From: an uncultured Acidobacteriota bacterium
GTDB lineage: Bacteria; Acidobacteriota; Terriglobia; Acidiferrales; UBA7541
NCBI GenBank assembly: GCA_963848365.1
Contig: CAWKDI010000015.1
Span: 29,037-93,036, forward strand
DNA: 64,000 nucleotides
Direction of reading: 5' to 3'
Shown here in pieces: positions 6,867 through 25,757 of the stretch (within the stretch, counting starts at the first letter, position 1; each line of letters opens with the position of its first letter). A program made the position numbers and the translations under genes. The notes under the pieces were generated by a model that saw only the letters and a program-made list of their open reading frames with translations, did no database searches and was not told where the DNA came from.

Positions 6867-7805
6867 TTGCGAGCTTGCTGTGCGGGCCTGGCGGCTGTCG
6901 CCATAGCGGCGCTGTTTTTCCCCGCTCGATTATCGTCTTGGCCTCAGAGCTCTCCAACAGCGACGAAGCCCGCTGAACACGGGGCAACGCCCTTTGACCC
7001 GCGCGACTTATCCGGCACTTGGCGTGGCGAGACCGCCCAACCCGGTGAGAATTCCCGCACCGGCGAGTCGCCTCGCAACTTTGCCAGCTATAGCCAAACG
7101 ATTCCCGAACCTCCCTTAACGGATTGGGGCAAGCAGCATTTACTTTATAAATCCATTTCGCACGATGCCTTGGCCGGCACGCCTCTACCGGGCATGGGCC
7201 TTCCAGGACATCTGTGTTCGCAACGGACTTCCCACGTCCCCTGTTTTGCTACGGACCTCAATGGAGTGCCGGTGAATGACCTGGATGGCGAATACCCCGG
7301 CAAGGATTGCGAGCCGTTGTCTACGCCCGCCATGTACGACTATCCAAGCCTGGGTTCCATGGAAATACTGGTCACCCCTGACGGCGACCGCATCTTTCAG
7401 CTATTCGAGTACCATCGCGAGTGGCGTACGTTCTGGCTCAATCGTGAACATCCCAAGGATCTCGACCCTACCTATGAGGGCGACTCGACTGCTCACTGGG
7501 AGGGAGACACTCTGGTGGTGGATACAATCGGATACAACGGCAAGACCATGATCACGCAGAATGTCGGCCATTCCAAGAGCGACGCGTTCCGGCTGGTCGA
7601 ACGTTTCCGGCGCGTAGATCACGACCACCTGGTGATCGATATGACGTACTACGATCCAAAAGCGTGGGGCGACAAATCCTGGCCTGGATTTCACAAATAT
7701 TACAACTTGGTGCCGAAGGAAGACTTTCAGGAATTCATCTGCAGCCCAAGCGAGTATCAGAAGTATAAGAACCGTATAACAGATACGATGAGACGGAACC
7801 GGTGA
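6867..7805 (+). CDS. Exported hypothetical protein
   Basis: TTG start, hydrophobic N-terminus (AGLAAVAIAALFF), same strand and 43 nt downstream of the previous gene. No motif I can name. Confidence 0.6.
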   Translation: MRACCAGLAAVAIAALFFPARLSSWPQSSPTATKPAEHGATPFDPRDLSGTWRGETAQPGENSRTGESPRNFASYSQTIPEPPLTDWGKQHLLYKSISHDALAGTPLPGMGLPGHLCSQRTSHVPCFATDLNGVPVNDLDGEYPGKDCEPLSTPAMYDYPSLGSMEILVTPDGDRIFQLFEYHREWRTFWLNREHPKDLDPTYEGDSTAHWEGDTLVVDTIGYNGKTMITQNVGHSKSDAFRLVERFRRVDHDHLVIDMTYYDPKAWGDKSWPGFHKYYNLVPKEDFQEFICSPSEYQKYKNRITDTMRRNR

Positions 7806-7841
7806 GTTACTTCGTCCTCTGGCTTCGGTCTCATTCGAAAT

Positions 7842-11570: not shown

Positions 11571-11714
11571 GACGGTTCCTCCCCTTTTTGAATTAACGTG
11601 GAATTTTAGAATTTAAGTCCATAGGTGCGCGTACGGTAGCTCCGCCGCCATTTCGTGTCAACTTCGCCCGGGCGATGCCGAACTGATCGTGCAATGATCC
11701 CGACAGGACCCAAT

Positions 11715-11739
11715 TTCTTGGAACAACGTTGGAACATTT
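11715..11739 (+). repeat. Repeat R3: TTCTTGGAACAACGTTGGAACATTT
   Basis: Third copy, same orientation, about 65 nt upstream of the second tRNA-like 3' half. Confidence 0.6.
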
Positions 11740-11801
11740 AAATTGAGTGATGTCGCCCGGATGCGACGGACAAGACCCGATGTAGAGTAGCCTCGCGACG
11801 C

Positions 11802-11846
11802 CTTCAAAGCAGAGGGTCGGGGGTTCGAATCCCTCCGGGCGCGCCA
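11802..11846 (+). pseudogene. tRNA 3'-half remnant of uncertain identity (loop-like CTTCAAA, G73, CCA)
   Basis: CTTCAAA-GCAGA-GGGTC-GGGGG-TTCGAAT-CCCTC-CGGGCGC-G-CCA. Good T arm (one G-T pair). The preceding GACGC cannot pair with GCAGA, and no D arm or 5' acceptor strand is present. Confidence 0.6.
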
Positions 11847-13277
11847 TTCCTCATTTTGGGCTCTTTCAAATATCAGGTCGAAGGGCTTTCTGTAAGTAGG
11901 ATAAACACTTGTCGCATCGACAGAGCAGTTCGAAAGCACGATTCGAAGCAATTTCCCTTTTTCTGCCGGTGGCTGCCTAAGGTAAAGAAAATAGGCCTTA
12001 TTCGCGAGTTCTAAAATCCGAATGCCCTCAAGCATTCTCTCAGGACTCTGCTTCTCAAGCCCTTGCAGCGCCACAGAATTTGCTGTTGCTCCTCATTCCA
12101 GTCTGAGGATCGGGCTTCCCAGAATTCCTCACTAATCTTGCCGTCCAGCTTATCCGTATAGGCACGTTCCAATCGTCCGCGCACCTGCGCTAGTCTCTGT
12201 GACAATCGGTCGTATTCCGTTTTTACTTGGACCTCAGATCGGCCTTTGTCGTGAAGCAAAGAATCTCGGAGGCTCGCGAGAATATCGTCTGGAATGTGAA
12301 TGTTCTCGAGGATTCCGCCGAGCCGGTCTCCAAGCTCCTCTTCGCGAAAATACGGTAGCTCGCACTTGCCGCGATAACCCGTGCAACGATAATAGGTATA
12401 GCGGTTCTTCTTGAGTTCCGCCGTCACCATGCAGTCGTCATACGCACATCGCAATAGACCGCCAAAAGCAAACCGGTGCTTTTTCTGCTTCGGTCGATTA
12501 TGCCCTTGAAAGACGGCCTGGACCTGATCGAACAGGTCGCGGCTAATCAGAGGCGTCTGTGTGTGCCCCGATACAACTTGCCTTCCCAATAGAATTCTCC
12601 GATGTAAAAGGGGTTTTTGAGAATTCTCGCCAAATAGCCGTTGGAAAAGACCGGCCCAAATTGATCTTTAATGACCCTGCGAACGCTTGAAAGTGAATGA
12701 TTCCCGCTGGCATAAAGCTCGAAAATCCGTTTCGCGAGAGGAATTTTATTCGGGTCGGTTTCAATGGTGTGTTCGAGCTTGTTATTCCGATATCCCAGCG
12801 GAGGGCGGCTCGGGTAAATTCCCTGTTCCGCCTTCTCCCGCATGCCCTTGCGAACCTCTTCGCGGAGATTCTCGATGTAGTTCCGAGCGATAACTACCTG
12901 GATGCCGTGCATCAGTTTCGCTTGGGACTTTGCTTCCTTGCTGATAATCTGCCCTTCTTTCGGCAGTTGTATTTCCACCTCCAAATCTTCTAGCGTCACG
13001 CAATCCCGGAAATTACGGTATAAGCGGTCGGTCTTTTCAACGATGACCGTCCGGCAATTTGGATTCAGGCGAAGAAATCGCACCATTTCATCGAATTGCT
13101 TTCTTCCGGTTTTCTTGGCCGTTTCCACATCCACAAATTCGCACATGATCTGCAAGCGATTTTTCTGGGCGTATTCCCGCAATAGTTTCAATTGGGCTGG
13201 AATGGAGAAGCCTTCCTGCTCTTGTTCCTTGCTGGAAACGCGAGCGTAAATAACGGCGAGTATTAAGGCGAGTGTCA

Positions 13278-13733
13278 TTATTTAATATTCTCCCGTGGAA
13301 TTTTACGGCCCAAATTTGCTAGCTCACCTTGCACGCGTTCAATTTCATTGTCAACGGCCTGGATTGCATTTTTGATATCGGGGTCGATAAAAACAAGTCC
13401 CTGCTTTTCAGTGAGTTGCAGTTTTTGTCTCTTCAAATGCTGGATCCTGTTAAATAAAAGATTCGCTTTGTGCGATCCGAATCCTTTTCCCGAAACTAGA
13501 AGTTCCTCTCCCATAATCTTGTGCAATCTCTTGATGCCGAGTTTCCCCCGAAAAAATATTTGGATTCCGCATTCTAGGCAAACGCAATAGGGCTTACCGC
13601 TGCGGGAAAGCCGAATATCGAGGCCGGAGGCACAAACAGGGCAGGGGAAATCCCTCCCCGCAAAGGAATTTCCCTTGGGTTCTGTTGCCTTGAACGTAAC
13701 GTTAACGTTGGGCTCTCGTCGGTCAGTCTTCAT
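13278..13733 (-). CDS. Zinc-ribbon + coiled-coil hypothetical protein, translationally coupled to the recombinase
   Basis: CPVCASGLD..(12 aa)..CVCLECG four-Cys ribbon. The C-terminal heptad-like region overlaps the recombinase start codon. Start taken at ATG 13733 (track start 13772 also possible). Confidence 0.55.
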   Translation of the reverse strand: MKTDRREPNVNVTFKATEPKGNSFAGRDFPCPVCASGLDIRLSRSGKPYCVCLECGIQIFFRGKLGIKRLHKIMGEELLVSGKGFGSHKANLLFNRIQHLKRQKLQLTEKQGLVFIDPDIKNAIQAVDNEIERVQGELANLGRKIPRENIK

Positions 13734-13941
13734 GCTTGTTTTCCTTTCGGTCCCATTGATCGAGTAGCTCAAAGAAGCTTCTCAATGTCACAATCGAGTC
13801 CTCATCTAGTGGACGCTCTGCAAAAGGTAGGGCCTGCTTGGCATTAACTGAGGCACCTTGCTGATGATTTCGGTCGAAACGATTCGAGGGGTCTGCGATA
13901 TCTGACTTCTCGGGACACCTTTTTGAGCCTTGGTCGGGCAT
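13723..13941 (-). CDS. Small hypothetical protein (about 72 aa)
   Basis: ATG 13941. Its 3' end overlaps the next ORF by 11 nt (ATGAAGACTGA). No recognisable motif. The longer track ORF (to 14127) overlaps the divergent gene. Confidence 0.3.
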   Translation of the reverse strand: MPDQGSKRCPEKSDIADPSNRFDRNHQQGASVNAKQALPFAERPLDEDSIVTLRSFFELLDQWDRKENKHED

Positions 13942-14142
13942 ACTCTTTGCAGGGGCCGTGAACTGGCTAGGCCGCGTCGGACATGCCCATCGAACAACGG
14001 CGACGTGCTTAGGTGAAGGAACTGAAAAGGGAGTTTCATTTCCGCTATGAGCCCGGGCAAGAGGAAGCGAAAGCCGCGCATTCACATTCCCGAATCTGCC
14101 CAGACCAGTTGGAGAGACAAAGTTCATCCGTTTTTCCTACGA

Positions 14143-14742
14143 ATGGTGGATCACAACAATAAGACGCGGGCTTTGCTGGCCAGTGCGAACACAAAAGACC
14201 AAGAGGAAGGTCGGCGGCTCACAGCAAATCCACCTCCTGAGCTAATTGCAGAAGCAGAGCGTATGCACGATGCGATTCCTCCATCGGAGCGGCCCGAACA
14301 CGACGCCTATTTGTCGATATTCGGAGCGGTTGATGCGCCCGAGGGCGGCACGATCTCGATGGGCCAATACATGATGGGATGGCTGGCTTGGAACAAATAC
14401 GGCAGATCGATCGTCGAGATCATAGAGGGAGACCAATTGGGAGACGAACAATCCAGCAGACAGCTTGCCAGCGTGACAGAGGATTATCAGGCTTGGCGTT
14501 ACGGGAAGCTGGACCCCAATAAAATGCGCTTTAAGTTCGACAGCGACCACATACAGCTATTGCAAGCCGGATCGCACCTGGGACTCGAGTCGCTCTCTCC
14601 CGAAGAACTAGCCGATTGTTTCGACGCACTGTGCTTGTGTGGCCGAACGCACGATCCAGACAATCTGCGAAAGCTTCGAACTCGGCTGGCCCAAACAATG
14701 GAACGGTTGACAGCAAAAAGCCGCAACCCGGGTTCTGACTAA
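14143..14742 (+). CDS. Hypothetical protein (cargo of the recombinase-associated segment)
   Basis: Open frame with protein-like composition and no motif recognised. Start at ATG 14143 (MVDHNNK) is preferred over 14047, which overlaps the opposite-strand ORF. Confidence 0.5.
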   Translation: MVDHNNKTRALLASANTKDQEEGRRLTANPPPELIAEAERMHDAIPPSERPEHDAYLSIFGAVDAPEGGTISMGQYMMGWLAWNKYGRSIVEIIEGDQLGDEQSSRQLASVTEDYQAWRYGKLDPNKMRFKFDSDHIQLLQAGSHLGLESLSPEELADCFDALCLCGRTHDPDNLRKLRTRLAQTMERLTAKSRNPGSD

Positions 14743-15080
14743 GAACAACGACGTGTGGCCTCGGCCAAATCGCGAAATTGCGGGCGAGCGTCCGCGCTTT
14801 GGCTACGGGCGGGTGCATGAATGCTGTGGCGGGAGCAAGAGACCGGCACGGCGAAGTGGGTGGTGAACCACAAGCGCGTGTAAATGACCGGGCGTACCGG
14901 CATATCAAAAGCAAAAGTTCGGTTCGAAAGAAATAGCTGCCATTATCGCCACCATGCCATGCGACGTTGATTTCGATGAACAAAGAAATCTTTTCCGCGA
15001 TCCGCGAAAAATCGGTTTCACCTGAATATTAAAGCCAGAAAGTTACTCCGGCACATTGAGAAACAACCGAGCGATATGAG

Positions 15081-15116
15081 AAGGGGCCGTGCTCGGGATG
15101 AGGAGGACGGCCCCTT
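15081..15116 (-). terminator. GC-rich hairpin downstream of the COG4315-like gene
   Basis: AAGGGGCCGT / ACGGCCCCTT 10-bp stem with a 16-nt loop, 14 nt after the stop at 15130. No clear U tract. Confidence 0.4.
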
Positions 15117-15129
15117 CGTTCAACATCTG

Positions 15130-15534
15130 TTAGGGCAGAGCTGCATGCCAGTTGCCCTTGGCAGCACCGTCACCAGCAGTGTCGCCAGCCTTCATGTCCT
15201 TGACAAAGGTGTACAGCGGTTTCCCTTTGTAGGCCCATTGCGTGGAACCGTCATCGCGAGTTACAACGCTCCAGTCCCCCGTGGACTTCGCGTCTGCTGA
15301 AGCGGCCAATGGCGGCCAGTTCGTGGCGCACTGCCCATTGCATGTCGATTTTCCCGAAGTATCCCTGTCGGACGTATAGAGCGTCATTCCCTTCGCGTCC
15401 GCCAAAACAACCGTCCCGGAATCTGCTTTCCGTGTCTGAACGCCTCCGGGCAGTTTGTCGGCGGCGTAAGCGTATCCGGCAAGAAGCAGAAGAAAACCAC
15501 ACGCAAACATTTTGATATTTCGCATTTTCGTCAA
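15130..15534 (-). CDS. Secreted lipoprotein-like protein of the COG4315 type (Yx[FWY]xxD repeats)
   Basis: Signal peptide MFACGFLLLLAGYAYA; TLYTSDRD..CNGQCATNWPPL..GKPLYTFVKD. Confidence 0.75.
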   Translation of the reverse strand: MTKMRNIKMFACGFLLLLAGYAYAADKLPGGVQTRKADSGTVVLADAKGMTLYTSDRDTSGKSTCNGQCATNWPPLAASADAKSTGDWSVVTRDDGSTQWAYKGKPLYTFVKDMKAGDTAGDGAAKGNWHAALP

Positions 15535-15691
15535 TCCTCCTCGATGGATTTATGAGCTTTTCGACCAACGTCTTTTTCAGTTAAGACGGCATGTTGTGCC
15601 GCGACAACCATGCGGCCCCGACGACGCCGTAAGGCATCTCACCAAACTCTGAGTCTAAGAGCGGAGTGGGAGTTAATCGGGAAACGCAGAG

Positions 15692-16069
15692 CTAACGTCG
15701 TGGAGGCTTGTCTAGAGGCAAAATAAATTGTGAAGGTTCTTTCGCATAAGTGATTACGCCCGGCATACGCGTTGTCCCCGGCAACAGCAAAGGCTGAACA
15801 TCCGCCAGAACTGCTTCCGGTGCAAGTTGCAGAATTCCGGAATCAGTATGCTGATTACAACCAGCCATGTTGCACTGTTGGCTGTCACCCCTGGCACTAT
15901 CACATAGAGGCTTCCCGTCTCGCCCTCGTTGCGAAGAGCCGCTTTTGTGCATCGGACACACAGTCCCGCAGCAACAGCAGCCAGACGACTGAGAGATCGC
16001 TTCCGCGAATCCCAAGAGCGGGCTCGACAACATCGTAACCAACAACAGGAATGCTTGGATGTGCCGCAT
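15692..16069 (-). CDS. Secreted Cys-rich protein, paralogue A (CCCCG-x2-CPMH)
   Basis: MRHIQAFLLLVTMLSSPLLGFAEA signal, then SGCCCCGTVCPMH..GKPLC..QQCNMAGCN..DSGIL..EAVL..YAKEP..PPRR. Start at ATG 16069. Confidence 0.6.
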   Translation of the reverse strand: MRHIQAFLLLVTMLSSPLLGFAEAISQSSGCCCCGTVCPMHKSGSSQRGRDGKPLCDSARGDSQQCNMAGCNQHTDSGILQLAPEAVLADVQPLLLPGTTRMPGVITYAKEPSQFILPLDKPPRR

Positions 16070-16188
16070 GCGGTAGGTTCTACTACTAAAAAGTTTTGGG
16101 CGCAACTCCATTGGGTAGCTGCGAGGATGCGCTCAGTCTTTTCGCGAGAAGCTTGCTTTTTTGAAACGTCAGTAGTACAAACTTTGCA

Positions 16189-16572
16189 ATGCGACGTGTG
16201 CATGCATTTTTCCTTTTCATTGCGATGATGGCCAATCCCATTGCGGCCATGGCCTCTGCCATATTGCAGCCTTCGACGTCCTGCTGCTGTTGCGGCGCGA
16301 TGTGTCCCATGCACCGGCCTTCTCATTCTCAAGATACGCATGGAAGAAAGCTTTGCGGCGGCGGAAAGACGGATTCGAGCAAGTCATGCGATATGGGCAT
16401 CTGCAACTGCAATCCTCGTTCCGATTTCGGAATTCTATTTTTCGTAGAAGCGGTTTTGACACAACACCACGTTGTTTCGATCCTGCAACAAACACGATTT
16501 CTAGGCCTGAGCTCATACGCTGCTGAGCCTGTGCGATCCGTGCTGCCTCCTGAACAACCTCCTCGTCTGTAG
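16189..16572 (+). CDS. Secreted Cys-rich protein, paralogue B (CCCCG-x2-CPMH)
   Basis: MRRVHAFFLFIAMMANPIAAMASA signal, then TSCCCCGAMCPMH..GRKLC..KSCDMGICNCN..DFGIL..EAVL..YAAEP..PPRL. Lies 40 nt upstream of the TonB receptor gene. Confidence 0.6.
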   Translation: MRRVHAFFLFIAMMANPIAAMASAILQPSTSCCCCGAMCPMHRPSHSQDTHGRKLCGGGKTDSSKSCDMGICNCNPRSDFGILFFVEAVLTQHHVVSILQQTRFLGLSSYAAEPVRSVLPPEQPPRL

Positions 16573-16611
16573 TCCGTAAGCCCCAGCAGTTCAAAGCACT
16601 AAAAAACCATA

Positions 16612-19518
16612 TTGACGAGGAGAGTGTGTATGCACGGGGTCGTAATTCGTTCGCTGTGGATAGGTGTCCGCGTTCTTGCTGTAGCTGTTTTGTTGATTTC
16701 TTCAACTTCAGACGTTCTTCGGGCACAGGAGACTGTCAATTACGCCAGCGTCAGCGGTGATGTGACAGATCCGTCGGGTGGTGTTGTGGCTGGGGCAGAC
16801 ATCACCGCCCGCCAGATCGATACCAACGTAATCAGCTCAACCACGACGGATAGCGAAGGACGCTTCCGTTTTCCGTACCTGAAGGTTGGGCAGTACGAAA
16901 TTAAAGTTAAGCAGCAAGGCTTCGGTGATGCGACACGTGAGGTGACGCTAACCGTTGGCTCGGCGTTCGAATTGGCCATTCCGCTGGAGGTCGGCATTGC
17001 CAAGGAAAGTGTGAATGTCAGCGGCGAAGCGGCGGCAATCGAAACAGCGCGCACCCAAGTCGCCGGCACGGTCACTCAAAATGAAGTGAATAGCCTGCCG
17101 CTCAATGGGCGCAGTTTCCTCAACCTGACGCTGCTCGTTCCCGGGGTTTCTCCCACCAACACGGCCAGCACACAGTTATTCGCGGAGACTTCGGCTGTCC
17201 CCGGACAGGGCATTTCAGTCAGCAGCCAGCGCAATTTCTCAAACAGTTTCATCGTGGATGGTCTTTCCGCCAACGATGACGCAGCAGGGCTCGTTCTGAC
17301 GTTTTATGGTTTGGACGTGGTGCAGGAATTTCAGGTCGTCACTTCGGGAGGGCAAGCGGAGTTCGGCCGCGCCCTAGGCGGCTACGTGAACATGGTCACG
17401 AAGAGCGGAACCGACGCAGTTCATGGTGCGGTGTACGGGTATTTTCAGAATCAGCGATTCAACGCCGAAAATGCTCTCTCTCACGCGAACCTTCCACTGA
17501 CACAGGCTCAATACGGCGCCAGTATCGGGGGACCGATCATTAACGGCCGTACCTTTTATTTTGCCAATTTCGAGCAACGCCTATTAAACCAGGCCGGCAA
17601 TCCCGTCATCACCATCACGCCGGCGAATCTCGCCAGTATCAACGCCCGGCTTACGGCGGTGGGCTACAGAGGCCCTTTGATTTCCACCGGCCAATATCCG
17701 AATCCCGTTCACAACGTCAATTTTCTGGGAAAGATGGACCACAGCTTCAACGAGAAGGATCAATTCAGTGCCCGCTACAGCCTGTATGACGTTCACTCCA
17801 CAAACTCGCGCGGGGTTGGCGGTTTGAGCGCGGTGAGCGCGGCGGCTGGACTGAGCGACCTCGATCAAACTGCGGCCGTCAGCAACGTTTACACTTTCTC
17901 AGCACGTACTGTAAACGAAACGCGGGCCCAATTCACCAACAGCAACCTGTTGGCACCCCCGAATGACGCCATCGGGCCGGCGGTGAGCATATCCGGAGCC
18001 GCTTCTTTTGGAACGCTCTCGGGTTCTCCCACCGGACGCCTCGACCGGCTTTTCGAAATTGCGGACAATCTATCGCACCAGAAGGGGCCGCATGCCCTTC
18101 GCGCAGGCGTGGACTTCCTCTACAACGATCTCACCATCACTTTCCCGCAATCCATTCGCGGCAGCTATTCCTTCTCCAGCGTGAGCAGCTTTCTGACGGG
18201 AACCTATAGCACCTTTACTCAGACCTTCGGCAACCCCGTGGTGCCGCAGACGAACCCCAATATCGGGTTCTATGGGCAGGATGAATGGCAAGTGAATCAT
18301 GGTCTTACGGTGAATGCCGGCGTGCGGTACGACCTGGAATTCCTGAAGTCCATCGCCACGGATACCAACAACGTTTCGCCCCGGTTGGGGTTTGCCTGGT
18401 CGCCGTTTGCCCAGAAGCATACCGTCGTGCGCGGAGGGTTTGGGATCTTTTATGACCGCGTGGCATTGCGGCCGCTGGCCAACGCTCTACTCTCCGGGGG
18501 AAACACCACCAATGTCACTCAAATCCAGCTGCTGAGCACCACCCTTAATTTCGGTCAGACGGGAGCGCCCGTGTTTCCGAACATCCTTGCGAGTGCGCCC
18601 TCTGGCTTGCCGGTCAGCTTTTCCACGATGGACCCGCACATGCCAAACGCTTACTCCGAGCAAGCTAGCCTGGAGATCGAACAGCAACTGGGCAGCCACG
18701 GTACACTGAGCGTGAACTATCAGCATCTTCGTGGCGTTGATTTCATCATTTCAGTCAATTTGAATACACCCACGTGCACGGCGGCAGTCGATCCGGTCAA
18801 CTTGTGCCGTCCGAATCCCGGCTATCAAAACAACAAGCAATATTCCCCAGGAGCAGATTCTGAGTATGACGGCCTCTCGGTTTCTTATGTGGACCGGCCG
18901 ACTGGCTGGGGAACCTTCCGCGTCTCCTACACCTACTCGAAGGCCCTGGACGATGTGAGCGAGTTCTTCTTCAGCGCGCCGCTCAACAACTTCAACATCC
19001 ACCAGGACTGGGGTCGTTCCGACGACGACCAGCGCCACCGTCTGGTGTTTGACACGACGCTTCATACTTCGACCGACCGGGCAACCACCGCCTGGCAACG
19101 CATCAGTCATGGGTTTCAGCTCAACGGAATCCTGACGTATTACTCCTCTTTGCCCTTCAACATTGTGAGCGGAGCCAACACGATTCAGACCACGGCAGGC
19201 AGGCCGTGCCCGGGACTTGCCGGGAACGCCTCCGCTTGCACGAGCAACGTGGGGTTGATGATCGGCCGGAACACCGGCACGGGTTTTGATTCCTTCAGCC
19301 TAAACACGCGTCTGAGCCGGAACTTTGCCATTGGCGAGCGCTTCCGCCTCGAAGCGATCGCCGAATTGTTCAACGCTCTCAATCACACAAACTACCAAAT
19401 ACCGAACAACTCGTTCGGCACGGGTGTGTATCCGACCAATCCTTCATCCACCTTCGGTCAGCCCACGGCCGTTGGAGGCCCGCGCGCCGCCGAACTGGCA
19501 TTGCGTGTGAGCTTCTAA
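16612..19518 (+). CDS. TonB-dependent outer-membrane receptor with N-terminal CarboxypepD_reg domain
   Basis: SGDVTDPSGGVVAGADITARQ..TDSEGRFRFPYLKVGQYEIKV; plug (LPLNGRSFLNLTLLVPG); long barrel ending ..AELALRVSF (aromatic C-terminus). Confidence 0.9.
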   Translation: MTRRVCMHGVVIRSLWIGVRVLAVAVLLISSTSDVLRAQETVNYASVSGDVTDPSGGVVAGADITARQIDTNVISSTTTDSEGRFRFPYLKVGQYEIKVKQQGFGDATREVTLTVGSAFELAIPLEVGIAKESVNVSGEAAAIETARTQVAGTVTQNEVNSLPLNGRSFLNLTLLVPGVSPTNTASTQLFAETSAVPGQGISVSSQRNFSNSFIVDGLSANDDAAGLVLTFYGLDVVQEFQVVTSGGQAEFGRALGGYVNMVTKSGTDAVHGAVYGYFQNQRFNAENALSHANLPLTQAQYGASIGGPIINGRTFYFANFEQRLLNQAGNPVITITPANLASINARLTAVGYRGPLISTGQYPNPVHNVNFLGKMDHSFNEKDQFSARYSLYDVHSTNSRGVGGLSAVSAAAGLSDLDQTAAVSNVYTFSARTVNETRAQFTNSNLLAPPNDAIGPAVSISGAASFGTLSGSPTGRLDRLFEIADNLSHQKGPHALRAGVDFLYNDLTITFPQSIRGSYSFSSVSSFLTGTYSTFTQTFGNPVVPQTNPNIGFYGQDEWQVNHGLTVNAGVRYDLEFLKSIATDTNNVSPRLGFAWSPFAQKHTVVRGGFGIFYDRVALRPLANALLSGGNTTNVTQIQLLSTTLNFGQTGAPVFPNILASAPSGLPVSFSTMDPHMPNAYSEQASLEIEQQLGSHGTLSVNYQHLRGVDFIISVNLNTPTCTAAVDPVNLCRPNPGYQNNKQYSPGADSEYDGLSVSYVDRPTGWGTFRVSYTYSKALDDVSEFFFSAPLNNFNIHQDWGRSDDDQRHRLVFDTTLHTSTDRATTAWQRISHGFQLNGILTYYSSLPFNIVSGANTIQTTAGRPCPGLAGNASACTSNVGLMIGRNTGTGFDSFSLNTRLSRNFAIGERFRLEAIAELFNALNHTNYQIPNNSFGTGVYPTNPSSTFGQPTAVGGPRAAELALRVSF

Positions 19519-19543: not shown

Positions 19544-21322
19544 ATGATCCACGGACGTCTCGATAAACGGACATGGCAGAGGGCGCTAATCGTGGCCCTC
19601 TGCTTTGTCTGCGGGACGCCGGCGGTTCACGCGCATGCGACACTGCTGCAAACCGAACCCGCAGCAGACAGCCGCATGGAACACGCACCGAGCCGCGTGC
19701 TTCTCTCGTTCAATGAGCGTGTCGAGACGGTTTTTAACTCGATTGAGGTTCTCAACCAGAAAGGAGAGCGAGTCGATAGTGGAGTTCCACAGGTGACCGG
19801 TGAAGGCGATGTTCTGGCGATAGGCTTGAGATCACTGAATGCGGGCCAATACGTTGTTTTTTGGAGGGTGATTTCTTTGGACGGTCACCAGGTTCAAGGA
19901 CACTTCGGTTTTGGCGTTGACTCGATGCCTCCCAGCGAAGGCGAGATGACTCGCTTTCCTCATGGCAGCGAGAGGACGACTTGGAACTCATACACTTCGA
20001 TTGTCAAGTGGTTCGGTCTGGTGGGGATGGTGGTTGGCCTTGGCGGACTCAGTTTTTGGTTATGGGCATTCGGTCCCGCGGTCCATACGGTACAACGACC
20101 CGCGATCGAGCGCGCCGCACTGGTTCGCCAAGCCGAAAAGCGCATCCACAAGATTCTCTGGGCAGCAGCTTCTGCCTTTCTTGTCTCTCAATGTCTTGCG
20201 TTGATCGACCAAGCGATGGTCTTCACCGATTTCCCTTCAATCACCGCCCTCTCACCACTAACGATCTGGACCGTAGTTGAGATGACCAACTATGGGCGGT
20301 GGTGGAGTGTCCGAATGACAGCTTCCGTCGCACTTGTTGGTCTTTGTGTTTTTGGTTTACGGTCAGTCGCCTCACGGGTGGGCAAAAGTTCCGCTTTCCC
20401 AGCGCGAAGCCTGCTGTTGGCGATTATTTTGGCAGTTCTGGGAAGTGTGGTTCTGATTTCAATTTCGTTAACTGGACACGCCCGAGCAGTTTCACGCTGG
20501 CCAGTTCTCGCAGTTGGTAGTGATTGGGCTCATTTGGCTGCGACGACAATCTGGATAGGGGGACTTGCCTTCCTCTGGATAACTGTTTCGATTGAAGAGG
20601 GCAAAAACGAAGAAGGGACAGAGTTTCTTTTGGCCGTGGCGACCCGATTTTCATTAATCGCACGGATCTGTGTCGCAGTGCTTGTAATAACGGGGATTTA
20701 TGCCGCTTGGCTTCACATGCCCAATTGGAGATCTTTCGTTTCTACAGACTACGGTCGAGTGCTCTCAATCAAACTTCTCATCATCGTTCCTTTGTTCTTG
20801 ATCGGCCTTATAAATTGGCGATGTGTATTGCCAGCGTTGGGGCGTTATTCATCGGAGCCCCGAGTAGCACTCGCGCAGACCCGCCGATTGGGGGCCCTCA
20901 TTAAAGCCGAGACCACGTTAGGTGGTGCCGTTCTCCTAGCTGTTGCAATCCTAACGGGCCTTCCTCCTTCTACGGCCGTGGCAATGAATGGACCGGTAAA
21001 TATGAGCCAGCGCAATGCGGATGCAAACATGAGTGTCGCACTGAGGCTCGACTCGGGACAGGCCGGCACGAGGCGCGCAGTTGTTGCTCTCGCGGATTCG
21101 AGAGGGCGCGCCGTCACGGATGCCAAAAGAGTCACCCTCTACTTGGCAATGCTGGATATGAACATGGGCTTAGAAACTGTCCAGGCCGAGCCATCGGCCG
21201 ATGGCACCTATCAGGCAGAACTTGCTCTGACGATGCCTGGTAGATGGAGGATCAGCGTCGAGGTTTCGCCTGCTCGTGGAGATACATTCGTGACGGAATT
21301 CAACTTTTCTTCGGGACTATAA
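19544..21322 (+). CDS. CopC-CopD-YtkA tri-domain copper transport protein (YcnJ-like architecture)
   Basis: The N-terminus HAHATLLQTEPAADS..VVFWRVISLDGHQVQGHFGFGV is CopC-like. A multi-TM CopD-like core follows. The C-terminal soluble domain ..TLYLAMLDMNMGLETVQAEPSADGTYQAEL..GRWRISVEV is YtkA/FixH-like. Confidence 0.85.
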   Translation: MIHGRLDKRTWQRALIVALCFVCGTPAVHAHATLLQTEPAADSRMEHAPSRVLLSFNERVETVFNSIEVLNQKGERVDSGVPQVTGEGDVLAIGLRSLNAGQYVVFWRVISLDGHQVQGHFGFGVDSMPPSEGEMTRFPHGSERTTWNSYTSIVKWFGLVGMVVGLGGLSFWLWAFGPAVHTVQRPAIERAALVRQAEKRIHKILWAAASAFLVSQCLALIDQAMVFTDFPSITALSPLTIWTVVEMTNYGRWWSVRMTASVALVGLCVFGLRSVASRVGKSSAFPARSLLLAIILAVLGSVVLISISLTGHARAVSRWPVLAVGSDWAHLAATTIWIGGLAFLWITVSIEEGKNEEGTEFLLAVATRFSLIARICVAVLVITGIYAAWLHMPNWRSFVSTDYGRVLSIKLLIIVPLFLIGLINWRCVLPALGRYSSEPRVALAQTRRLGALIKAETTLGGAVLLAVAILTGLPPSTAVAMNGPVNMSQRNADANMSVALRLDSGQAGTRRAVVALADSRGRAVTDAKRVTLYLAMLDMNMGLETVQAEPSADGTYQAELALTMPGRWRISVEVSPARGDTFVTEFNFSSGL

Positions 21323-21356: not shown

Positions 21357-22076
21357 GTGAGACATCAGATGTTGGGAATGCTTCGAATTTCTGTCGTGGG
21401 GGTAGGGCTTTCCCTCTTTCCTGCTTTATCCGGGGCGCACGTAACGCTGAGGCCGAACCAACCACTTCGGCCGGGCAGCTTCGCAGACTTCATCATGAAC
21501 GTCCCCAGCGAAAGAGCGAGCGGCACGGTCAGTGTGAGCCTAGAGGTACCTGAGGCTTTCCTCAAGGCCGGCGGACGTTTGAATCGCGTGGAATATCTTC
21601 CTGGCTGGGAGGTCGTAATTGAGAAGGAGGACAAGCCAGACGAAGTTTATTCAGAAGAGATGGCAGAACGCGAAAAGAGGGGCCATGCATCTGAGGGCGG
21701 AGCGTCATCTGGGACGACAGCGACAAGTGAAAAGGAAAACGAACTACTAAACGAGATGCGAAGGAAATGGATTAAGAAGGTCACTTTCACGGGAGGCATA
21801 ATTCCGCCCGATGGATTCCAGACCTTCCTTCTTTCCTTCCAACTGCCCAGCGCGCCAGGCACATACCGTTTTCCCGCCGTTCAAGTCTATGCGGATGGAA
21901 CTGAGATTTCATGGGTGGAATTGGTTCAAGGAGCGCAGCACCCTGCGCCCTCCATAATCTTGGACAATCGGCAGGAGCACCCGGCATCGCAACAACTCCC
22001 GCTTGTGCTGTCTGCTCTTGCTCTCTTGATGGCTGCAGGTCTCGCTGTCGACCGTTTTCGCCGAGGCAAAGCATGA
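21357..22076 (+). CDS. YcnI/DUF1775-family copper-binding protein with C-terminal TM anchor
   Basis: Signal peptide followed directly by HVTLRPNQ (N-terminal His after cleavage). C-terminal LPLVLSALALLMAAGLAV. Its stop overlaps the next start (ATGA at 22073). Confidence 0.75.
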   Translation: MRHQMLGMLRISVVGVGLSLFPALSGAHVTLRPNQPLRPGSFADFIMNVPSERASGTVSVSLEVPEAFLKAGGRLNRVEYLPGWEVVIEKEDKPDEVYSEEMAEREKRGHASEGGASSGTTATSEKENELLNEMRRKWIKKVTFTGGIIPPDGFQTFLLSFQLPSAPGTYRFPAVQVYADGTEISWVELVQGAQHPAPSIILDNRQEHPASQQLPLVLSALALLMAAGLAVDRFRRGKA

Positions 22077-22960
22077 ACGGTCTGAGGCGTAGAAAATCCG
22101 AATCTAAACTCGTAGCAGTTTCTACGTCAGTCGCGCTGGCCTGCCTTCTGACTGCCTGTAGCAACTCGCCGAAGCACTATTCCCTGCAAGGACGGGTACT
22201 GGGGAAAAGCGCCTTGACACAGCAACTCACCGTAAAACATAGCGATATTCCGGGCTTCATGACGGCGATGACGATGACGTATCCCATCAAAGATAGCCAA
22301 GGGTTCCAGCAGGTCCAGCCAGGTGATCTCATTACGGCAGACGTCGTTGTGGGTGGAAATAACGGCTACTGGCTGGAGCACCTGGCAATTAAGGATAAGG
22401 CTGGGCGCGGAACGGTGTCGTCGCTGCCTCCCCATGAACTTCTGCCCGGGGAACCGGTTCCGGATATAGCGCTGACGAATCAGGATGGGCAAGCGCTGCA
22501 CCTCGCTGACTTCAGAGGGAAAGCTCTACTGGTCACGTTTGTATACACGCGCTGCCCCTTTGCAACTTTTTGTCCGCTTACGAGCAGTAAGTTTGCGGCG
22601 ATCCAAAAAGAGCTGGCGAAAACGCCGGGAGACTACGAAAAGACGCATTTGATAACCATCAGTCTCGATCCTAAATACGACACACCCCCAGTCATGCGGA
22701 AGTATGGTCTCGCTTACCTCTCCGACGATCCCAAGGGATTCGGGCACTGGGAATTTGTCTCGACCAGCCCGGACGATTTGAGGAAGCTCGCGACCGCGTT
22801 TGGGCTCGAATATTTTGAACAGGACAACCTGATATCACACTCGATGAAAACCGTTCTGTTGGCCACGGATGGAACCGTGTCTCACAGCTGGTCGGACAAT
22901 CAATGGACGAATTCGGATGTGGTTGCGGCACTGCGGCAACAAGCAGGCATCCGTCGATGA
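22073..22960 (+). CDS. SCO/SenC-family thioredoxin-fold lipoprotein with N-terminal CusF-like Met-rich domain
   Basis: Lipobox LLTAC. LTVKHSDIPGFMTAMTMTYPI (CusF-like). FVYTRCPFATFCP (SCO-type Cys pair with unusual 5-residue spacing). The track start at 21911 overlaps ycnI and is rejected. Confidence 0.8.
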   Translation: MNGLRRRKSESKLVAVSTSVALACLLTACSNSPKHYSLQGRVLGKSALTQQLTVKHSDIPGFMTAMTMTYPIKDSQGFQQVQPGDLITADVVVGGNNGYWLEHLAIKDKAGRGTVSSLPPHELLPGEPVPDIALTNQDGQALHLADFRGKALLVTFVYTRCPFATFCPLTSSKFAAIQKELAKTPGDYEKTHLITISLDPKYDTPPVMRKYGLAYLSDDPKGFGHWEFVSTSPDDLRKLATAFGLEYFEQDNLISHSMKTVLLATDGTVSHSWSDNQWTNSDVVAALRQQAGIRR

Positions 22961-23511: not shown

Positions 23512-24249
23512 ATGTTTCAACAGCGGCGAGATTTGATCAAACTAGCGGGAATATCGGCACTCGCAAGTATGGGCGTCCTCACGCCCAATTCATCCAGCGG
23601 GCAGACACACACTGCCAAGGCAGGGCAGCCGTTCACGCTGCCAGCGCTGCCATACGGCTATGAAGCATTAGAACCATATATTGACGCCGAAACGATGCAT
23701 TTGCATCACGACAAGCACCACGCGGCGTATGTGAATAATCTAAACAATGCGGTAGCAAACTCCCCAGATGTTGCTGCGATGTCCGTTGAGGAACTGGTTC
23801 GGCACTTGGATAAAGTCCCCGAACCGATTCGCACGGTCGTCCGTAACAACGGCGGTGGTCATGCAAATCATTCCTTTTTCTGGCAGATCATGCACAGCAA
23901 CGGCCCGGACCGGCCACAGGGAGAGTTGGCGCGGGCCATCGATACCAAATTCGGTAGCTTCTCCGGATTTCAAGACCAGTTTACGAAGGCCACGCTGAGT
24001 GTCTTCGGCAGTGGGTGGGCTTGGCTCAGTTCCGATGACAGGGGCGGCATTGCCATCGAGACAACGCCCAATCAAGACAGCCCGTGGATGGCGGGAAGAA
24101 CTCCGCTGCTGGGAATCGACGTTTGGGAGCACGCCTACTATCTGAAGTACAAAAACGTTCGTGCGGATTACGTCACCGCGTTCTATGAGGTGATCTCCTG
24201 GGACGCGGTGAGCGAGCGATTCCACAATATTCCTGTCCAGAAGTCCTAG
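23512..24249 (+). CDS. Fe/Mn superoxide dismutase with Tat-type signal peptide
   Basis: MFQQRRDLIKLAGISALASMG; HLHHDKHHAAYVNNLN; DVWEHAYYLKY. Confidence 0.9.
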   Translation: MFQQRRDLIKLAGISALASMGVLTPNSSSGQTHTAKAGQPFTLPALPYGYEALEPYIDAETMHLHHDKHHAAYVNNLNNAVANSPDVAAMSVEELVRHLDKVPEPIRTVVRNNGGGHANHSFFWQIMHSNGPDRPQGELARAIDTKFGSFSGFQDQFTKATLSVFGSGWAWLSSDDRGGIAIETTPNQDSPWMAGRTPLLGIDVWEHAYYLKYKNVRADYVTAFYEVISWDAVSERFHNIPVQKS

Positions 24250-24278
24250 TTGCGCAATGTAGCGTGAGGGAGCGAAAA

Positions 24279-24728
24279 ATGAAGATTCTACTGCTTCTCT
24301 TGGCAACGACGGTTATCCCGCCCATACCATCACCATACCAATCGGAGCGCATTGTGCACCTTGAGGACTCGCTGTTAGCGCCATGCTGCTACACGCAACC
24401 GGTTTCCAAACACATGAGCGATATTGCATTCGACATGCGGAAGGAAATTGGCGAGATGGTTCTGGCCGGAAAGTCGGACAGAGAGATATTGGATCACTAC
24501 AAAGCATTGTATGGCCTTCAAATCCTGGTCGATCCCGAAGGGACCAGGCACAAGGTGATGTATGGCCTGCCGCCCCTATCTGCGATTGCCGGGTTCATGG
24601 CGGTCTTGTTTTTCATCCGAAGATCGGTCAACCGGCAAAGGCACGACGGACCTTCCGACGTTGGCACTTCTGCGATCTATGAGCACTATAAAGGGAAAAT
24701 CCAATCTGATCTGCGGAACTACGAGTGA
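24279..24728 (+). CDS. CcmH/NrfF-like protein lacking the canonical CXXC
   Basis: LLAPCCYTQPVSKHMSDIAFDMRKEIGEMVLAGKSDREILDHYKALYG plus a C-terminal TM helix matches the CcmH pattern, but with adjacent CC instead of C-x-x-C. Confidence 0.6.
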   Translation: MKILLLLLATTVIPPIPSPYQSERIVHLEDSLLAPCCYTQPVSKHMSDIAFDMRKEIGEMVLAGKSDREILDHYKALYGLQILVDPEGTRHKVMYGLPPLSAIAGFMAVLFFIRRSVNRQRHDGPSDVGTSAIYEHYKGKIQSDLRNYE

Positions 24729-24734
24729 AAAGGG

Positions 24735-25757
24735 ATGGGAATGAGTGTACGTCCCGTGCCTGAAAAGAGAGGCGTAGATTCAATTCGCCCGACCGCGACA
24801 ACTTTCAGGCTAAAGAAGTTCGTTCAATGGATCGCTTTTCTTGGAGCCGCCCTTCTGATATTGGCGGTTGCGTTCCGACACGGGATTGCGCCGGCCAGCG
24901 GTTCTTTTCTTTCAGTATTCGAAGCAGGACAAACCTCGGCGGTGCTCAATGTCGGAGTGCTGGTCTTTCGCGAGGGACTGGAGTGTGTGCTAGTGTTGGC
25001 CGCTCTCACCGCTGACAGGACTCGATCTGAACGTGGATATCAACGTCCCATTGCTGTGGGGGCAGGTGTTGGGTTTCTGGCAACTCTTGTAACCTGGCAT
25101 TTCGCTGTGCTCATCCTCGATGATCTCGGAAAGAATATTTCGGCCCTTGCCGTTCAGGCCGGAACCGGATTGGTGGCAATTGTCGTTCTTCTGGTGGTCA
25201 TGAACTGGTTCTTTCACAAGACCTATTGGACCGGTTGGATTTCGCTCCACACCGAGCGGAAACGAGCACTATTGACAAGCAATCAAACGAAAACTGCCAA
25301 AGCAGGTCTCCTGTGGGGAATGGGCCTCCTGGGATTCACGTCCTTCTACCGGGAGGGGTTTGAGGTTGTGCTCTTCCTTCAAAGTTACAGGCTTAGAGCG
25401 GGTGGCAGATCCGTATTAGGCGGCGTTCTTCTTGGCGTGCTTCTGTCCGGCTTGGTGGCCGTTCTTACGTTCGCAGCTCATCGGCGGTTGCCCTATAGAA
25501 AGATGCTCGTACTGACGGGTGTAATGCTCGGATTCGTCCTGCTGGTGATGGTCGGGGAACAGGCCCAGGAGATGCAACTGGCCCATTGGCTTCCTAAAAC
25601 GGATATTCCCAAGCTCGCAAAGGTGACTCCGGAGTGGATAGGTCTTTGGTTTTCTATTTTTCCGACAGTCGAGACGTTGAGTGCCCAATTGCTCGCAGGC
25701 ATTCTCGTATTGGGCTCATACATCACCGCTCAGCCCTCACGAGTCGCTACGGATTAG
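24735..25757 (+). CDS. FTR1-family high-affinity iron (Fe2+/Pb2+) permease
   Basis: Two REXXE motifs (FREGLECV, YREGFEVV) in a seven-TM-like protein. Confidence 0.85.
   Translation: MGMSVRPVPEKRGVDSIRPTATTFRLKKFVQWIAFLGAALLILAVAFRHGIAPASGSFLSVFEAGQTSAVLNVGVLVFREGLECVLVLAALTADRTRSERGYQRPIAVGAGVGFLATLVTWHFAVLILDDLGKNISALAVQAGTGLVAIVVLLVVMNWFFHKTYWTGWISLHTERKRALLTSNQTKTAKAGLLWGMGLLGFTSFYREGFEVVLFLQSYRLRAGGRSVLGGVLLGVLLSGLVAVLTFAAHRRLPYRKMLVLTGVMLGFVLLVMVGEQAQEMQLAHWLPKTDIPKLAKVTPEWIGLWFSIFPTVETLSAQLLAGILVLGSYITAQPSRVATD

Follow-up and report, generated by a model that had tools for sequence, protein, structure and literature searches.

Why should an operon for copper uptake begin with a small, cysteine-rich open reading frame (ORF), and why should a paralogue of that ORF lie next to it, facing the other way? 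The question is raised by a stretch of 64,000 nucleotides (nt) from an uncultured Acidobacteriota bacterium (assembly GCA_963848365.1, contig CAWKDI010000015.1), called the window throughout; positions are those of this whole stretch unless a related locus is named. A first-pass annotation of this DNA had drawn attention to two divergent ORFs of about 125 codons separated by a 119-base-pair (bp) spacer, referred to here as paralogue A and paralogue B, and had suggested that their products could be periplasmic copper chaperones or sensors specific to this uptake route. By analogy with characterized systems, we think it rather likely that A and B are cis-acting, copper-sensing leader ORFs on which ribosomes stall, of the CutF and CruR kind, and not genes for stable copper chaperones.

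Two secreted-type paralogues and their family

Both ORFs are present as described, and their products are true paralogues of secreted type: BLASTP aligns A and B from end to end at 41% identity (E 1e-29). Every motif that had been listed (CCCCG-x2-CPMH, G-[KR]-x-LC, C-[ND]-M-[AG]-x-CN, D-x-GIL, EAVL, YA-x-EP and a PPR[RL] end) occurs in both. The start of A is the ATG at 16069; a 139-amino-acid (aa) version starting at 16111 was ruled out because family members begin M-R-R. Compared with orthologues, the ratio of nonsynonymous to synonymous substitution rates (dN/dS) is 0.34-0.40 for A and 0.18-0.30 for B, a sign of purifying selection from which it follows that A and B are translated genes. 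The divergent pair is kept without exception in the related loci that extend to both sides, of which there are about ten (L001/L003, L004, L013-L020).

The family to which A and B belong is visible only by exhaustive profile search. Single-sequence word-index searches were insufficient, yielding four and two close relatives (six in all), and a search for related loci with a narrow alignment (A1) likewise returned close relatives only. Against 1.84 billion representatives, the exhaustive profile search recovered 78 clusters (50% identity) at E<1e-3, nearly all of 115-165 aa and matching the profile end to end. One high-scoring match, P0008 (3126 aa, E 2e-23), was discarded as a low-complexity, repetitive false positive, its 33 repeated matches all falling on profile positions 3-23 in the signal-peptide region. 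A second profile search found 40 proteins, all metagenomic, all unnamed or ‘hypothetical’ and without Pfam domains; the genome matches were two metagenome-assembled genomes (MAGs) only, assigned to an uncultured Acidobacteriota bacterium and a Candidatus Acidiferrales bacterium (class Terriglobia). In Pfam and NCBIfam, nothing matched A or B at E<=1, and a PDB profile search matched no chain, so that the search with profile hidden Markov models (HMMs) proposed by the first-pass annotation, which could not assign the motif to a characterized family, leads to no known one. A and B represent a family of Acidobacteria that has not been described before, known only from metagenomes and Acidobacteriota MAGs.

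The same annotation had loosely compared the PPR ending and the genomic context with DUF2946-type proteins (PF11162) encoded next to copper TonB receptors. As a lead this was right (CruR, discussed below, is a DUF2946 protein); as a family assignment it fails. Neither A nor B matches PF11162 at E<=1, and only three of 108 family members do so at all, below threshold, the best being P0032 (E 0.0013, 19.9 bits against a gathering score of 23.7, profile positions 1-92 of 117). A tblastn search with P0032, the member closest to DUF2946, found no match in plasmids.

Members of the family share an N-terminus consisting of MRR, a hydrophobic core and AxA, a cysteine-rich segment with the consensus CC-x-G-x-MCPMH, a weakly conserved middle with scattered Cys residues, and a C-terminus with the consensus [PA]-P-[EDF]-[QE]-P-P-R-x-stop. 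Across a 56-member alignment, the only invariant positions are C39 (the Cys of CPMH), P124, P125 and R126. PPR is present in about 96 of the 106 retrieved sequences, with exactly one residue between it and the stop codon in 86, and its distance from CxMH is narrowly distributed (median 83 residues, standard deviation 3.5, range 76-95). The run of four cysteines that makes A and B so conspicuous is specific to their lineage and is not family-wide; a CXXC motif, similarly, is not conserved and can be read only inside the CCCC run of A and B. The strongest constraint in the family lies not on the cysteines, only one of which is invariant, but on the last four codons before the stop. Across distant loci the codons of PPR vary (CCT, CCC, CCG or CCA; CGT, CGA or CGC) with the amino acids constant, which places this constraint at the peptide level.

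From the MRR, the hydrophobic core and the A-x-A, the N-terminus reads as a Sec-type signal peptide. The monomer structure prediction that had been proposed (AlphaFold2, with the 56-sequence family alignment) returned this signal peptide as a helix, residues 2-25, and no folded domain, the rest being coil (mean pLDDT 61, pTM 0.25). Two other identities were considered for A and B and rejected: they are not lipoproteins, having no lipobox ahead of the first Cys, and they are not precursors of ribosomally synthesized and post-translationally modified peptides, there being no maturase genes present.

Operon position, mRNA ends and a proposed copper-sensing stall

B is followed by a gene for a TonB-dependent receptor and, beyond it, by the CopCD, YcnI and SCO genes that had been annotated; these were identified as a CopC-CopD-YtkA fusion, a YcnI/DUF1775 protein and a CusF-SCO1 fusion, and the copper context is real. 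Distant members of the family also occupy the first position of an operon, 39-95 nt upstream of a CarboxypepD_reg/Plug TonB-dependent receptor in eight of nine independent contigs: the receptor follows in L006-L012, with CusF-SCO1 next in L007 and CusF in L012 (L005 is the exception). Among close relatives, the divergent A/B pair is kept with a Lipoprotein_15 gene on the A side, and what follows B varies. In L002, B stands without an A partner and is followed by the same receptor alone; in L001/L003 it precedes a different, 819-aa receptor and then PepSY_TM; and in L004 and L014-L020 it precedes a 24-codon receptor remnant and then directly CusF-SCO1, with the intergenic region and its stem (described below) retained. 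The modules behind it being so different, B behaves like a regulatory head that is portable. The locus encodes no transcription factor that responds to copper.

The distance from B to the receptor gene had been given as 40 nt. This holds, to within a nucleotide, for the first possible start (39 nt to TTG 16612); to the likelier start, ATG 16630, the distance is 57 nt. A Shine-Dalgarno (SD) sequence, GAGGAG at 16617-16622, precedes ATG 16630, which sits 7 nt past it; TTG 16612 was rejected as the start, as the SD would then fall inside the coding sequence. The segment CCUCCUCGUC, formed largely by the codons for Pro-Pro-Arg at the end of B, is complementary to GACGAGGAG, and in the minimum-free-energy fold the SD pairs with the PPR codons, the predicted probability of pairing between the receptor SD and the end of B being 0.83. 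Such pairing of the SD with the end of the leader ORF is also predicted for seven of 11 loci that are of B type or distant, and for most of those of A type, where it spans 166-196 nt. In L003 the stem is kept with a different receptor gene and an unrelated intergenic sequence, a G-C pair becoming G-U; in L012, CCCCC/GGGGG replaces CCUCC/GGAGG. PPR opens with the codon CCU in seven of nine lineages, compared with a genome-wide background of about 15%. Both mRNAs, furthermore, are rich in C and poor in G around the end of the ORF, from its final 40 nt through the 40 nt that open the intergenic region (C/G 2.3-2.6), a composition that resembles a rut (Rho utilization) site and the region described for cruR. 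An Rfam scan of positions 15000-17000 found no RNA family.

The element AGTAGTA[GC]AA, which had been reported 6-7 nt before each ATG, does occur on both sides of the spacer (16078-16087 on the minus strand, 16171-16180 on the plus strand), at a distance of 8 nt. It had been taken to imply an inverted duplication that included the 5' leader; more likely it overlaps the -10 promoter hexamer of leaderless transcripts. An SD core within 20 nt of the start was found in none of 14 family genes and in 29 of 73 neighbouring genes, whereas a TAnnn[TAC] hexamer exactly at -13, that is 7 nt before the ATG, was found in ten of the 14 and in only four of the 73. Given this lack of an SD and the fixed -10-like hexamer, the region is probably a divergent promoter pair yielding leaderless mRNAs and not a duplicated leader. 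Between the two promoter-like elements lies a near-perfect palindrome, CTTTTCGCGAGAAG, which may be an operator.

Together these features suggest the following sequence of events. Each gene would have a promoter of its own within the spacer, and its mRNA, probably leaderless, would be translated into an intrinsically disordered nascent chain that bears a signal peptide and is rich in Cys, Met and His. The ribosome would pause at the invariant C-terminal Pro-Pro-Arg-x-stop, by which time the CC..CPMH segment, some 83 residues upstream, would be outside the exit tunnel, at or beyond the Sec translocon, and accessible to copper. A ribosome paused in this way would cover the PPR codons, which otherwise pair with the SD of the next gene, and also the C-rich, G-poor, rut-like stretch; pausing could thus expose the downstream ribosome-binding site, block Rho, or both, turning on what lies downstream, the Lipoprotein_15 gene in the case of A and the receptor-CopCD-YcnI-CusF/SCO1 operon in that of B. 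Copper bound to the nascent chain would alter the duration of the pause. The direction of its effect is the least certain step; a CruR-like sign, with copper shortening or releasing the pause and the operons switched off, is likelier because the regulated genes serve copper acquisition.

Several points weigh against this scheme. Stalling at Q/E-P-P-R-x-stop is argued by analogy, and the likeness to CutF is one of described features. Homology to DUF2946 is not established, the best of the three sub-threshold matches to PF11162 lying on the N-terminal and Cys region and not on the C-terminus. In CruR and CutF about 45 residues separate the metal motif from the arrest motif, little more than half of the 83 between Cys and PPR in this family. 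Some pairing between Pro-Pro codons and an SD is to be expected in any case, since CCNCCN complements GGAGG intrinsically; the z-score of the fold is a modest -1.5, controls in which the ORF end was shuffled were often not beaten, and in four of 11 loci the SD is masked weakly or by another hairpin. A strict sigma-70 scan gave no promoter. Finally, the secreted mature peptide could have a function of its own. A more specific version of the scheme, which we regard as possible though on balance doubtful, is that A and B form an Acidobacteria-specific variant of arrest peptides, in which back-to-back sensors share one control region for two divergent operons and are read from leaderless mRNAs, the PPR codons double as arrest site and anti-Shine-Dalgarno, and the 83-residue spacing sets the copper site across the Sec translocon, so that periplasmic copper is read and releases the stall.

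The main competitor is the chaperone proposal itself, by which A and B would be secreted periplasmic chaperones or buffers handing Cu(I) between the receptor and CopCD, YcnI and SCO1. A signal-peptide-like N-terminus (helix 2-25, then A-x-A), many cysteines and a C-P-M-H motif in a copper gene context, and purifying selection across the whole ORF would all be expected of such proteins, and CutF, too, was first proposed as a chaperone; once exported, however, CutF is degraded, and its action is in cis only. The mature part of A and B is predicted to be disordered, with nothing like a folded, beta-rich domain, and matches neither the CusF, CopC, PCuAC and SCO1 profiles nor any other chaperone model; only one Cys is invariant, the CCCC run being confined to one lineage; the genes always stand first in their operons, and B heads interchangeable modules. 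The chaperone reading is disfavoured in particular because the tightest constraint falls on PPR-x-stop, the last four codons, for which it offers no rationale, and we consider it improbable, although chaperoning or buffering might be a second function. The evidence does fit the other half of the original suggestion, that of sensors dedicated to this uptake route.

That the products are instead secreted copper-binding ligands, ribosomal chalkophores of a kind, re-imported by the adjacent receptor, is very unlikely. TonB-dependent receptors usually import metal chelates, one adjoins the genes in most loci, and Cys-rich peptides with an export signal would suit the part; yet the locus has no MbnBC-like gene, radical S-adenosylmethionine enzyme, peptidase or ATP-binding cassette exporter, no route across the outer membrane is apparent, B also heads operons without an intact receptor (the L004 type), A heads a lipoprotein gene, and the constraint on PPR-x-stop would go unexplained. 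This last feature, together with the SD pairing, is equally left over if A and B are exported or membrane-tethered regulators acting in trans on both operons, for instance as sigma/anti-sigma or two-component partners. The divergent layout about a shared control region with a conserved palindrome is compatible with this idea, and small exported proteins upstream of receptors do sometimes signal, but there is no sigma factor, anti-sigma factor, kinase or response regulator nearby and no transmembrane or cytoplasmic domain beyond the signal peptide, and we give it very little weight. Chance ORFs, or a non-coding divergent promoter region misread as genes, might be suspected from the shortness of both ORFs and their lack of an SD; the 41% identity of the paralogues, the 78 family clusters and the dN/dS values exclude this for practical purposes, and the invariance of amino acids with varying codons also speaks against it. 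A cis-acting leader function thus remains the reading that we prefer.

Neighbouring genes and related loci

Coordinates of the features discussed here are collected in Table 1.

Table 1. Features of the A/B locus and its surroundings (positions in the 64,000-nt window).
Feature	Positions	Strand	Remarks
Paralogue A	15692-16069	-	125 aa; signal peptide, CCCCGTVCPMH, C-terminal KPPRR-stop; family HMM E 3.5e-45
Paralogue B	16189-16572	+	127 aa; signal peptide, CCCCGAMCPMH, C-terminal PPEQPPRL-stop; family HMM E 1.7e-41
CCCCGTVCPMH codons of A	15947-15979	-	
CCCCGAMCPMH codons of B	16282-16314	+	Putative Cu(I) ligand motif; includes C39, the sole invariant Cys of the family
Putative arrest motif of A, KPPRR and stop codon	15692-15709	-	
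Putative arrest motif of B, PPEQPPRL and stop codon	16546-16572	+	P124, P125 and R126 invariant in the family
Stem, 5' arm CCUCCUCGUC	16558-16567	+	P124-P125-R126 codons and first base of L127 codon; anti-SD-like; inverted repeat
Stem, 3' arm GACGAGGAG	16614-16622	+	Contains the SD of the receptor gene
C-rich, G-poor stretch, end of A and start of 166-nt intergenic region	15650-15709	-	C/G 2.6
C-rich, G-poor stretch, end of B and start of intergenic region	16549-16608	+	C/G 2.3
Spacer, putative divergent promoter region	16070-16188	.	No SD on either side
Promoter-like elements of A	TTGCGC 16105-16100; TAGAAC 16082-16077	-	17 nt between hexamers; 7 nt from second hexamer to ATG
Promoter-like elements of B	TTGCTT 16153-16158; TACAAA 16176-16181	+	17 nt between hexamers; 7 nt from second hexamer to ATG
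Near-perfect palindrome CTTTTCGCGAGAAG	16138-16151	.	Between the two promoter-like elements; conserved in L003 and L004; candidate operator
Lipoprotein_15 (COG4315-type) gene	15130-15525	-	First gene after A; SD GGAGGA at 15540-15535
TonB-dependent receptor (CarboxypepD_reg and OMP_b-brl_4)	16630-19518	+	First gene after B
CopC-CopD-YtkA fusion	19544-21322	+	592 aa
DUF1775/YcnI	21357-22076	+	
CusF-SCO1 fusion	~22073-22960	+	Probable start 22073 overlaps the YcnI stop; ORF listing extends to 21911
CcmH-like protein	24264-24728	+	
FTR1-type permease	24735-25757	+	

Downstream of the CusF-SCO1 fusion, genes follow for a c-type cytochrome, an Fe/Mn superoxide dismutase, a CcmH-like protein and an FTR1 permease. 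The superoxide dismutase (23512-24249, plus strand) lies within this copper/cytochrome operon and has a twin-arginine-like N-terminus beginning MFQQRRDLIKLAG.

On the other side, A is separated by 166 nt from a gene of the Lipoprotein_15 (COG4315) family, whose product carries a Y-x-F-x-x-D repeat; a literature search on Lipoprotein_15, PF03640 and COG4315 found no link to copper. Between relatives, A is 56-82% identical and the Lipoprotein_15 protein mostly 90-96% (80% in the L015/L016 contigs), A thus diverging faster. A serine recombinase gene (Resolvase and Recombinase domains; 12547-13278, minus strand) lies 2.4 kb from the pair and is adjoined by two ORFs, 13278-13772 and 14047-14742, that match no family; its presence may point to mobility of the region.

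Among the related loci, the receptor-CopCD-YcnI module has been lost in L004 (positions 7504-7633 of that locus) and in L014-L020, where the N-terminal remnant of the receptor reads MHGVVIRPLWLSVVFFFRGRRNF-stop. The MAG that carries the A/B pair of L003 also contains the solo second B of L002, which heads a receptor 95% identical to that of the window. In L002, a PadR-type regulator gene is divergent upstream of the solo B (7205-7813, minus strand), and a BNR-repeat protein is encoded after the receptor (11686-12948, plus strand).

Comparison with known copper-responsive leaders

Copper-responsive arrest peptides such as CutF and CruR, a recent addition to what is known of the regulation of metal homeostasis, have been described mainly in Pseudomonadota. 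Acidobacteria are not mentioned in the papers on CutF or CruR, and are absent from a list of more than 2000 CruR homologues. If the reading of A and B as leader ORFs is true, soil and peat Acidobacteria share this regulatory logic, in a family that the PF11162 and NCBIfam models miss, with the consequence that copper-uptake operons are annotated as unregulated, with a ‘hypothetical protein’ in front. The family would then offer a natural comparison set for stalling at P-P-R-x-stop, with a different metal motif, a doubled spacing, possibly leaderless initiation and a paired arrangement; it could help to show how copper binding by a nascent chain reaches the ribosome, and it would provide a practical rule for spotting copper-regulated TonB-dependent receptors in uncultured Acidobacteria.

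The closest likeness in the protein is to CutF of Rhodobacter capsulatus, the first product of the cutFOG operon, a 118-aa protein with a Sec signal peptide, a C69xxHC73 motif and no Pfam match, in which a functional arrest motif, P109EPEGPPPRL118, occupies the very C-terminus and a copper-induced stall melts a stem shielding the SD of cutO. A and B are similarly small (125 and 127 aa), have a Sec-type signal peptide and a central Cys/His motif, match no Pfam family, and stand first in a copper operon, followed by a short intergenic region. B ends in EQPPRL-stop where CutF ends in GPPPRL-stop, the last four residues of B (PPRL) matching. The stem that hides the SD of the next gene in CutF is melted by the stalled ribosome; for B, a stem of this kind is predicted. 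The rules for CutF-like proteins (Ozturk et al. 2021/2023), a class divided into 29 sequence clusters, ask for a protein shorter than 150 aa that carries a signal peptide and a Cys/His motif, has PP among its last 15 residues and is encoded less than 1000 nt upstream of a gene on the same strand; A and B both have the signal peptide, the Cys/His motif and the terminal PP, with intergenic distances of 166 and 57 nt, respectively. The differences lie in the target, in the motifs and in the phylum. CutF regulates an enzyme of detoxification, a multicopper oxidase, and stalls in response to copper, whereas the targets of A and B are uptake and delivery genes, for which the opposite sign is expected; the C-x-x-H-C of CutF lies about 45 residues from its Pro motif, compared with about 83 for CC-x-G-x-MCPMH; CutF has PPP, dependent on elongation factor P (EF-P), and A and B only PP; and CutF comes from Pseudomonadota, the A/B family from Acidobacteriota.

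In operon context the closer parallel is CruR (Bp2923, DUF2946/PF11162) of Bordetella pertussis, which heads cruR-crtA(bfrG)-crpH and requires both a CXXC motif and, at a distance of 45 residues, RAPP at the C-terminus; the arrest is relieved by copper, and Rho-dependent termination can take place. Like B, CruR is an upstream ORF heading the operon of a TonB-dependent copper receptor. CruR homologues are found at the head of operons that contain PepSY_TM, CopC, YcnI and Sco genes, the same first-gene context as is found here, and L001/L003 repeat the order leader-receptor-PepSY_TM known from Bordetella. With A and B, CruR further shares an export signal, a Cys motif, a C-terminal Pro-Pro arrest motif near the stop codon (putative in A and B), a rut-like region with more C than G at the end of the ORF, and the expectation that copper switches uptake genes off. 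Unlike CruR, A and B do not match PF11162 at threshold; they end in [QE]PPR and one residue where CruR has RAPP and three, no family member showing RAPP; and the 45 +/- 2 spacing of CXXC contrasts with 83 in the family. The intergenic region of CruR measures 162 nt and works by Rho-dependent termination, with no SD-masking stem reported, in contrast to 57 nt and a predicted stem after B, and 166 nt after A.

More distant parallels are found among arrest peptides that monitor protein export. In SecM-secA, VemP, MifM and the RAPP-type ApdA/ApdP, as proposed for A and B, a nascent chain bound for export brings the ribosome to a halt at a C-terminal motif, and the halted ribosome opens a stem covering the next ribosome-binding site; these peptides, however, sense the secretion machinery and not a metal, use RAGP or RAPP, and have no Cys-rich sensor segment. 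CopL of Xanthomonas and Stenotrophomonas, which acts only in cis, and the CutF-like clusters (SilD, CusD, CzcI) are likewise small, Cys/His-rich exported proteins encoded upstream of metal homeostasis genes and are grouped by rule; they differ in heading efflux or oxidase genes in Pseudomonadota, and they are likened to A and B by description only. Set beside these systems, A and B are probably an undescribed acidobacterial addition to the known copper-sensing arrest-peptide leaders, novel in their divergent pairing, their probably leaderless mRNAs, their metal motif and their doubled spacing.

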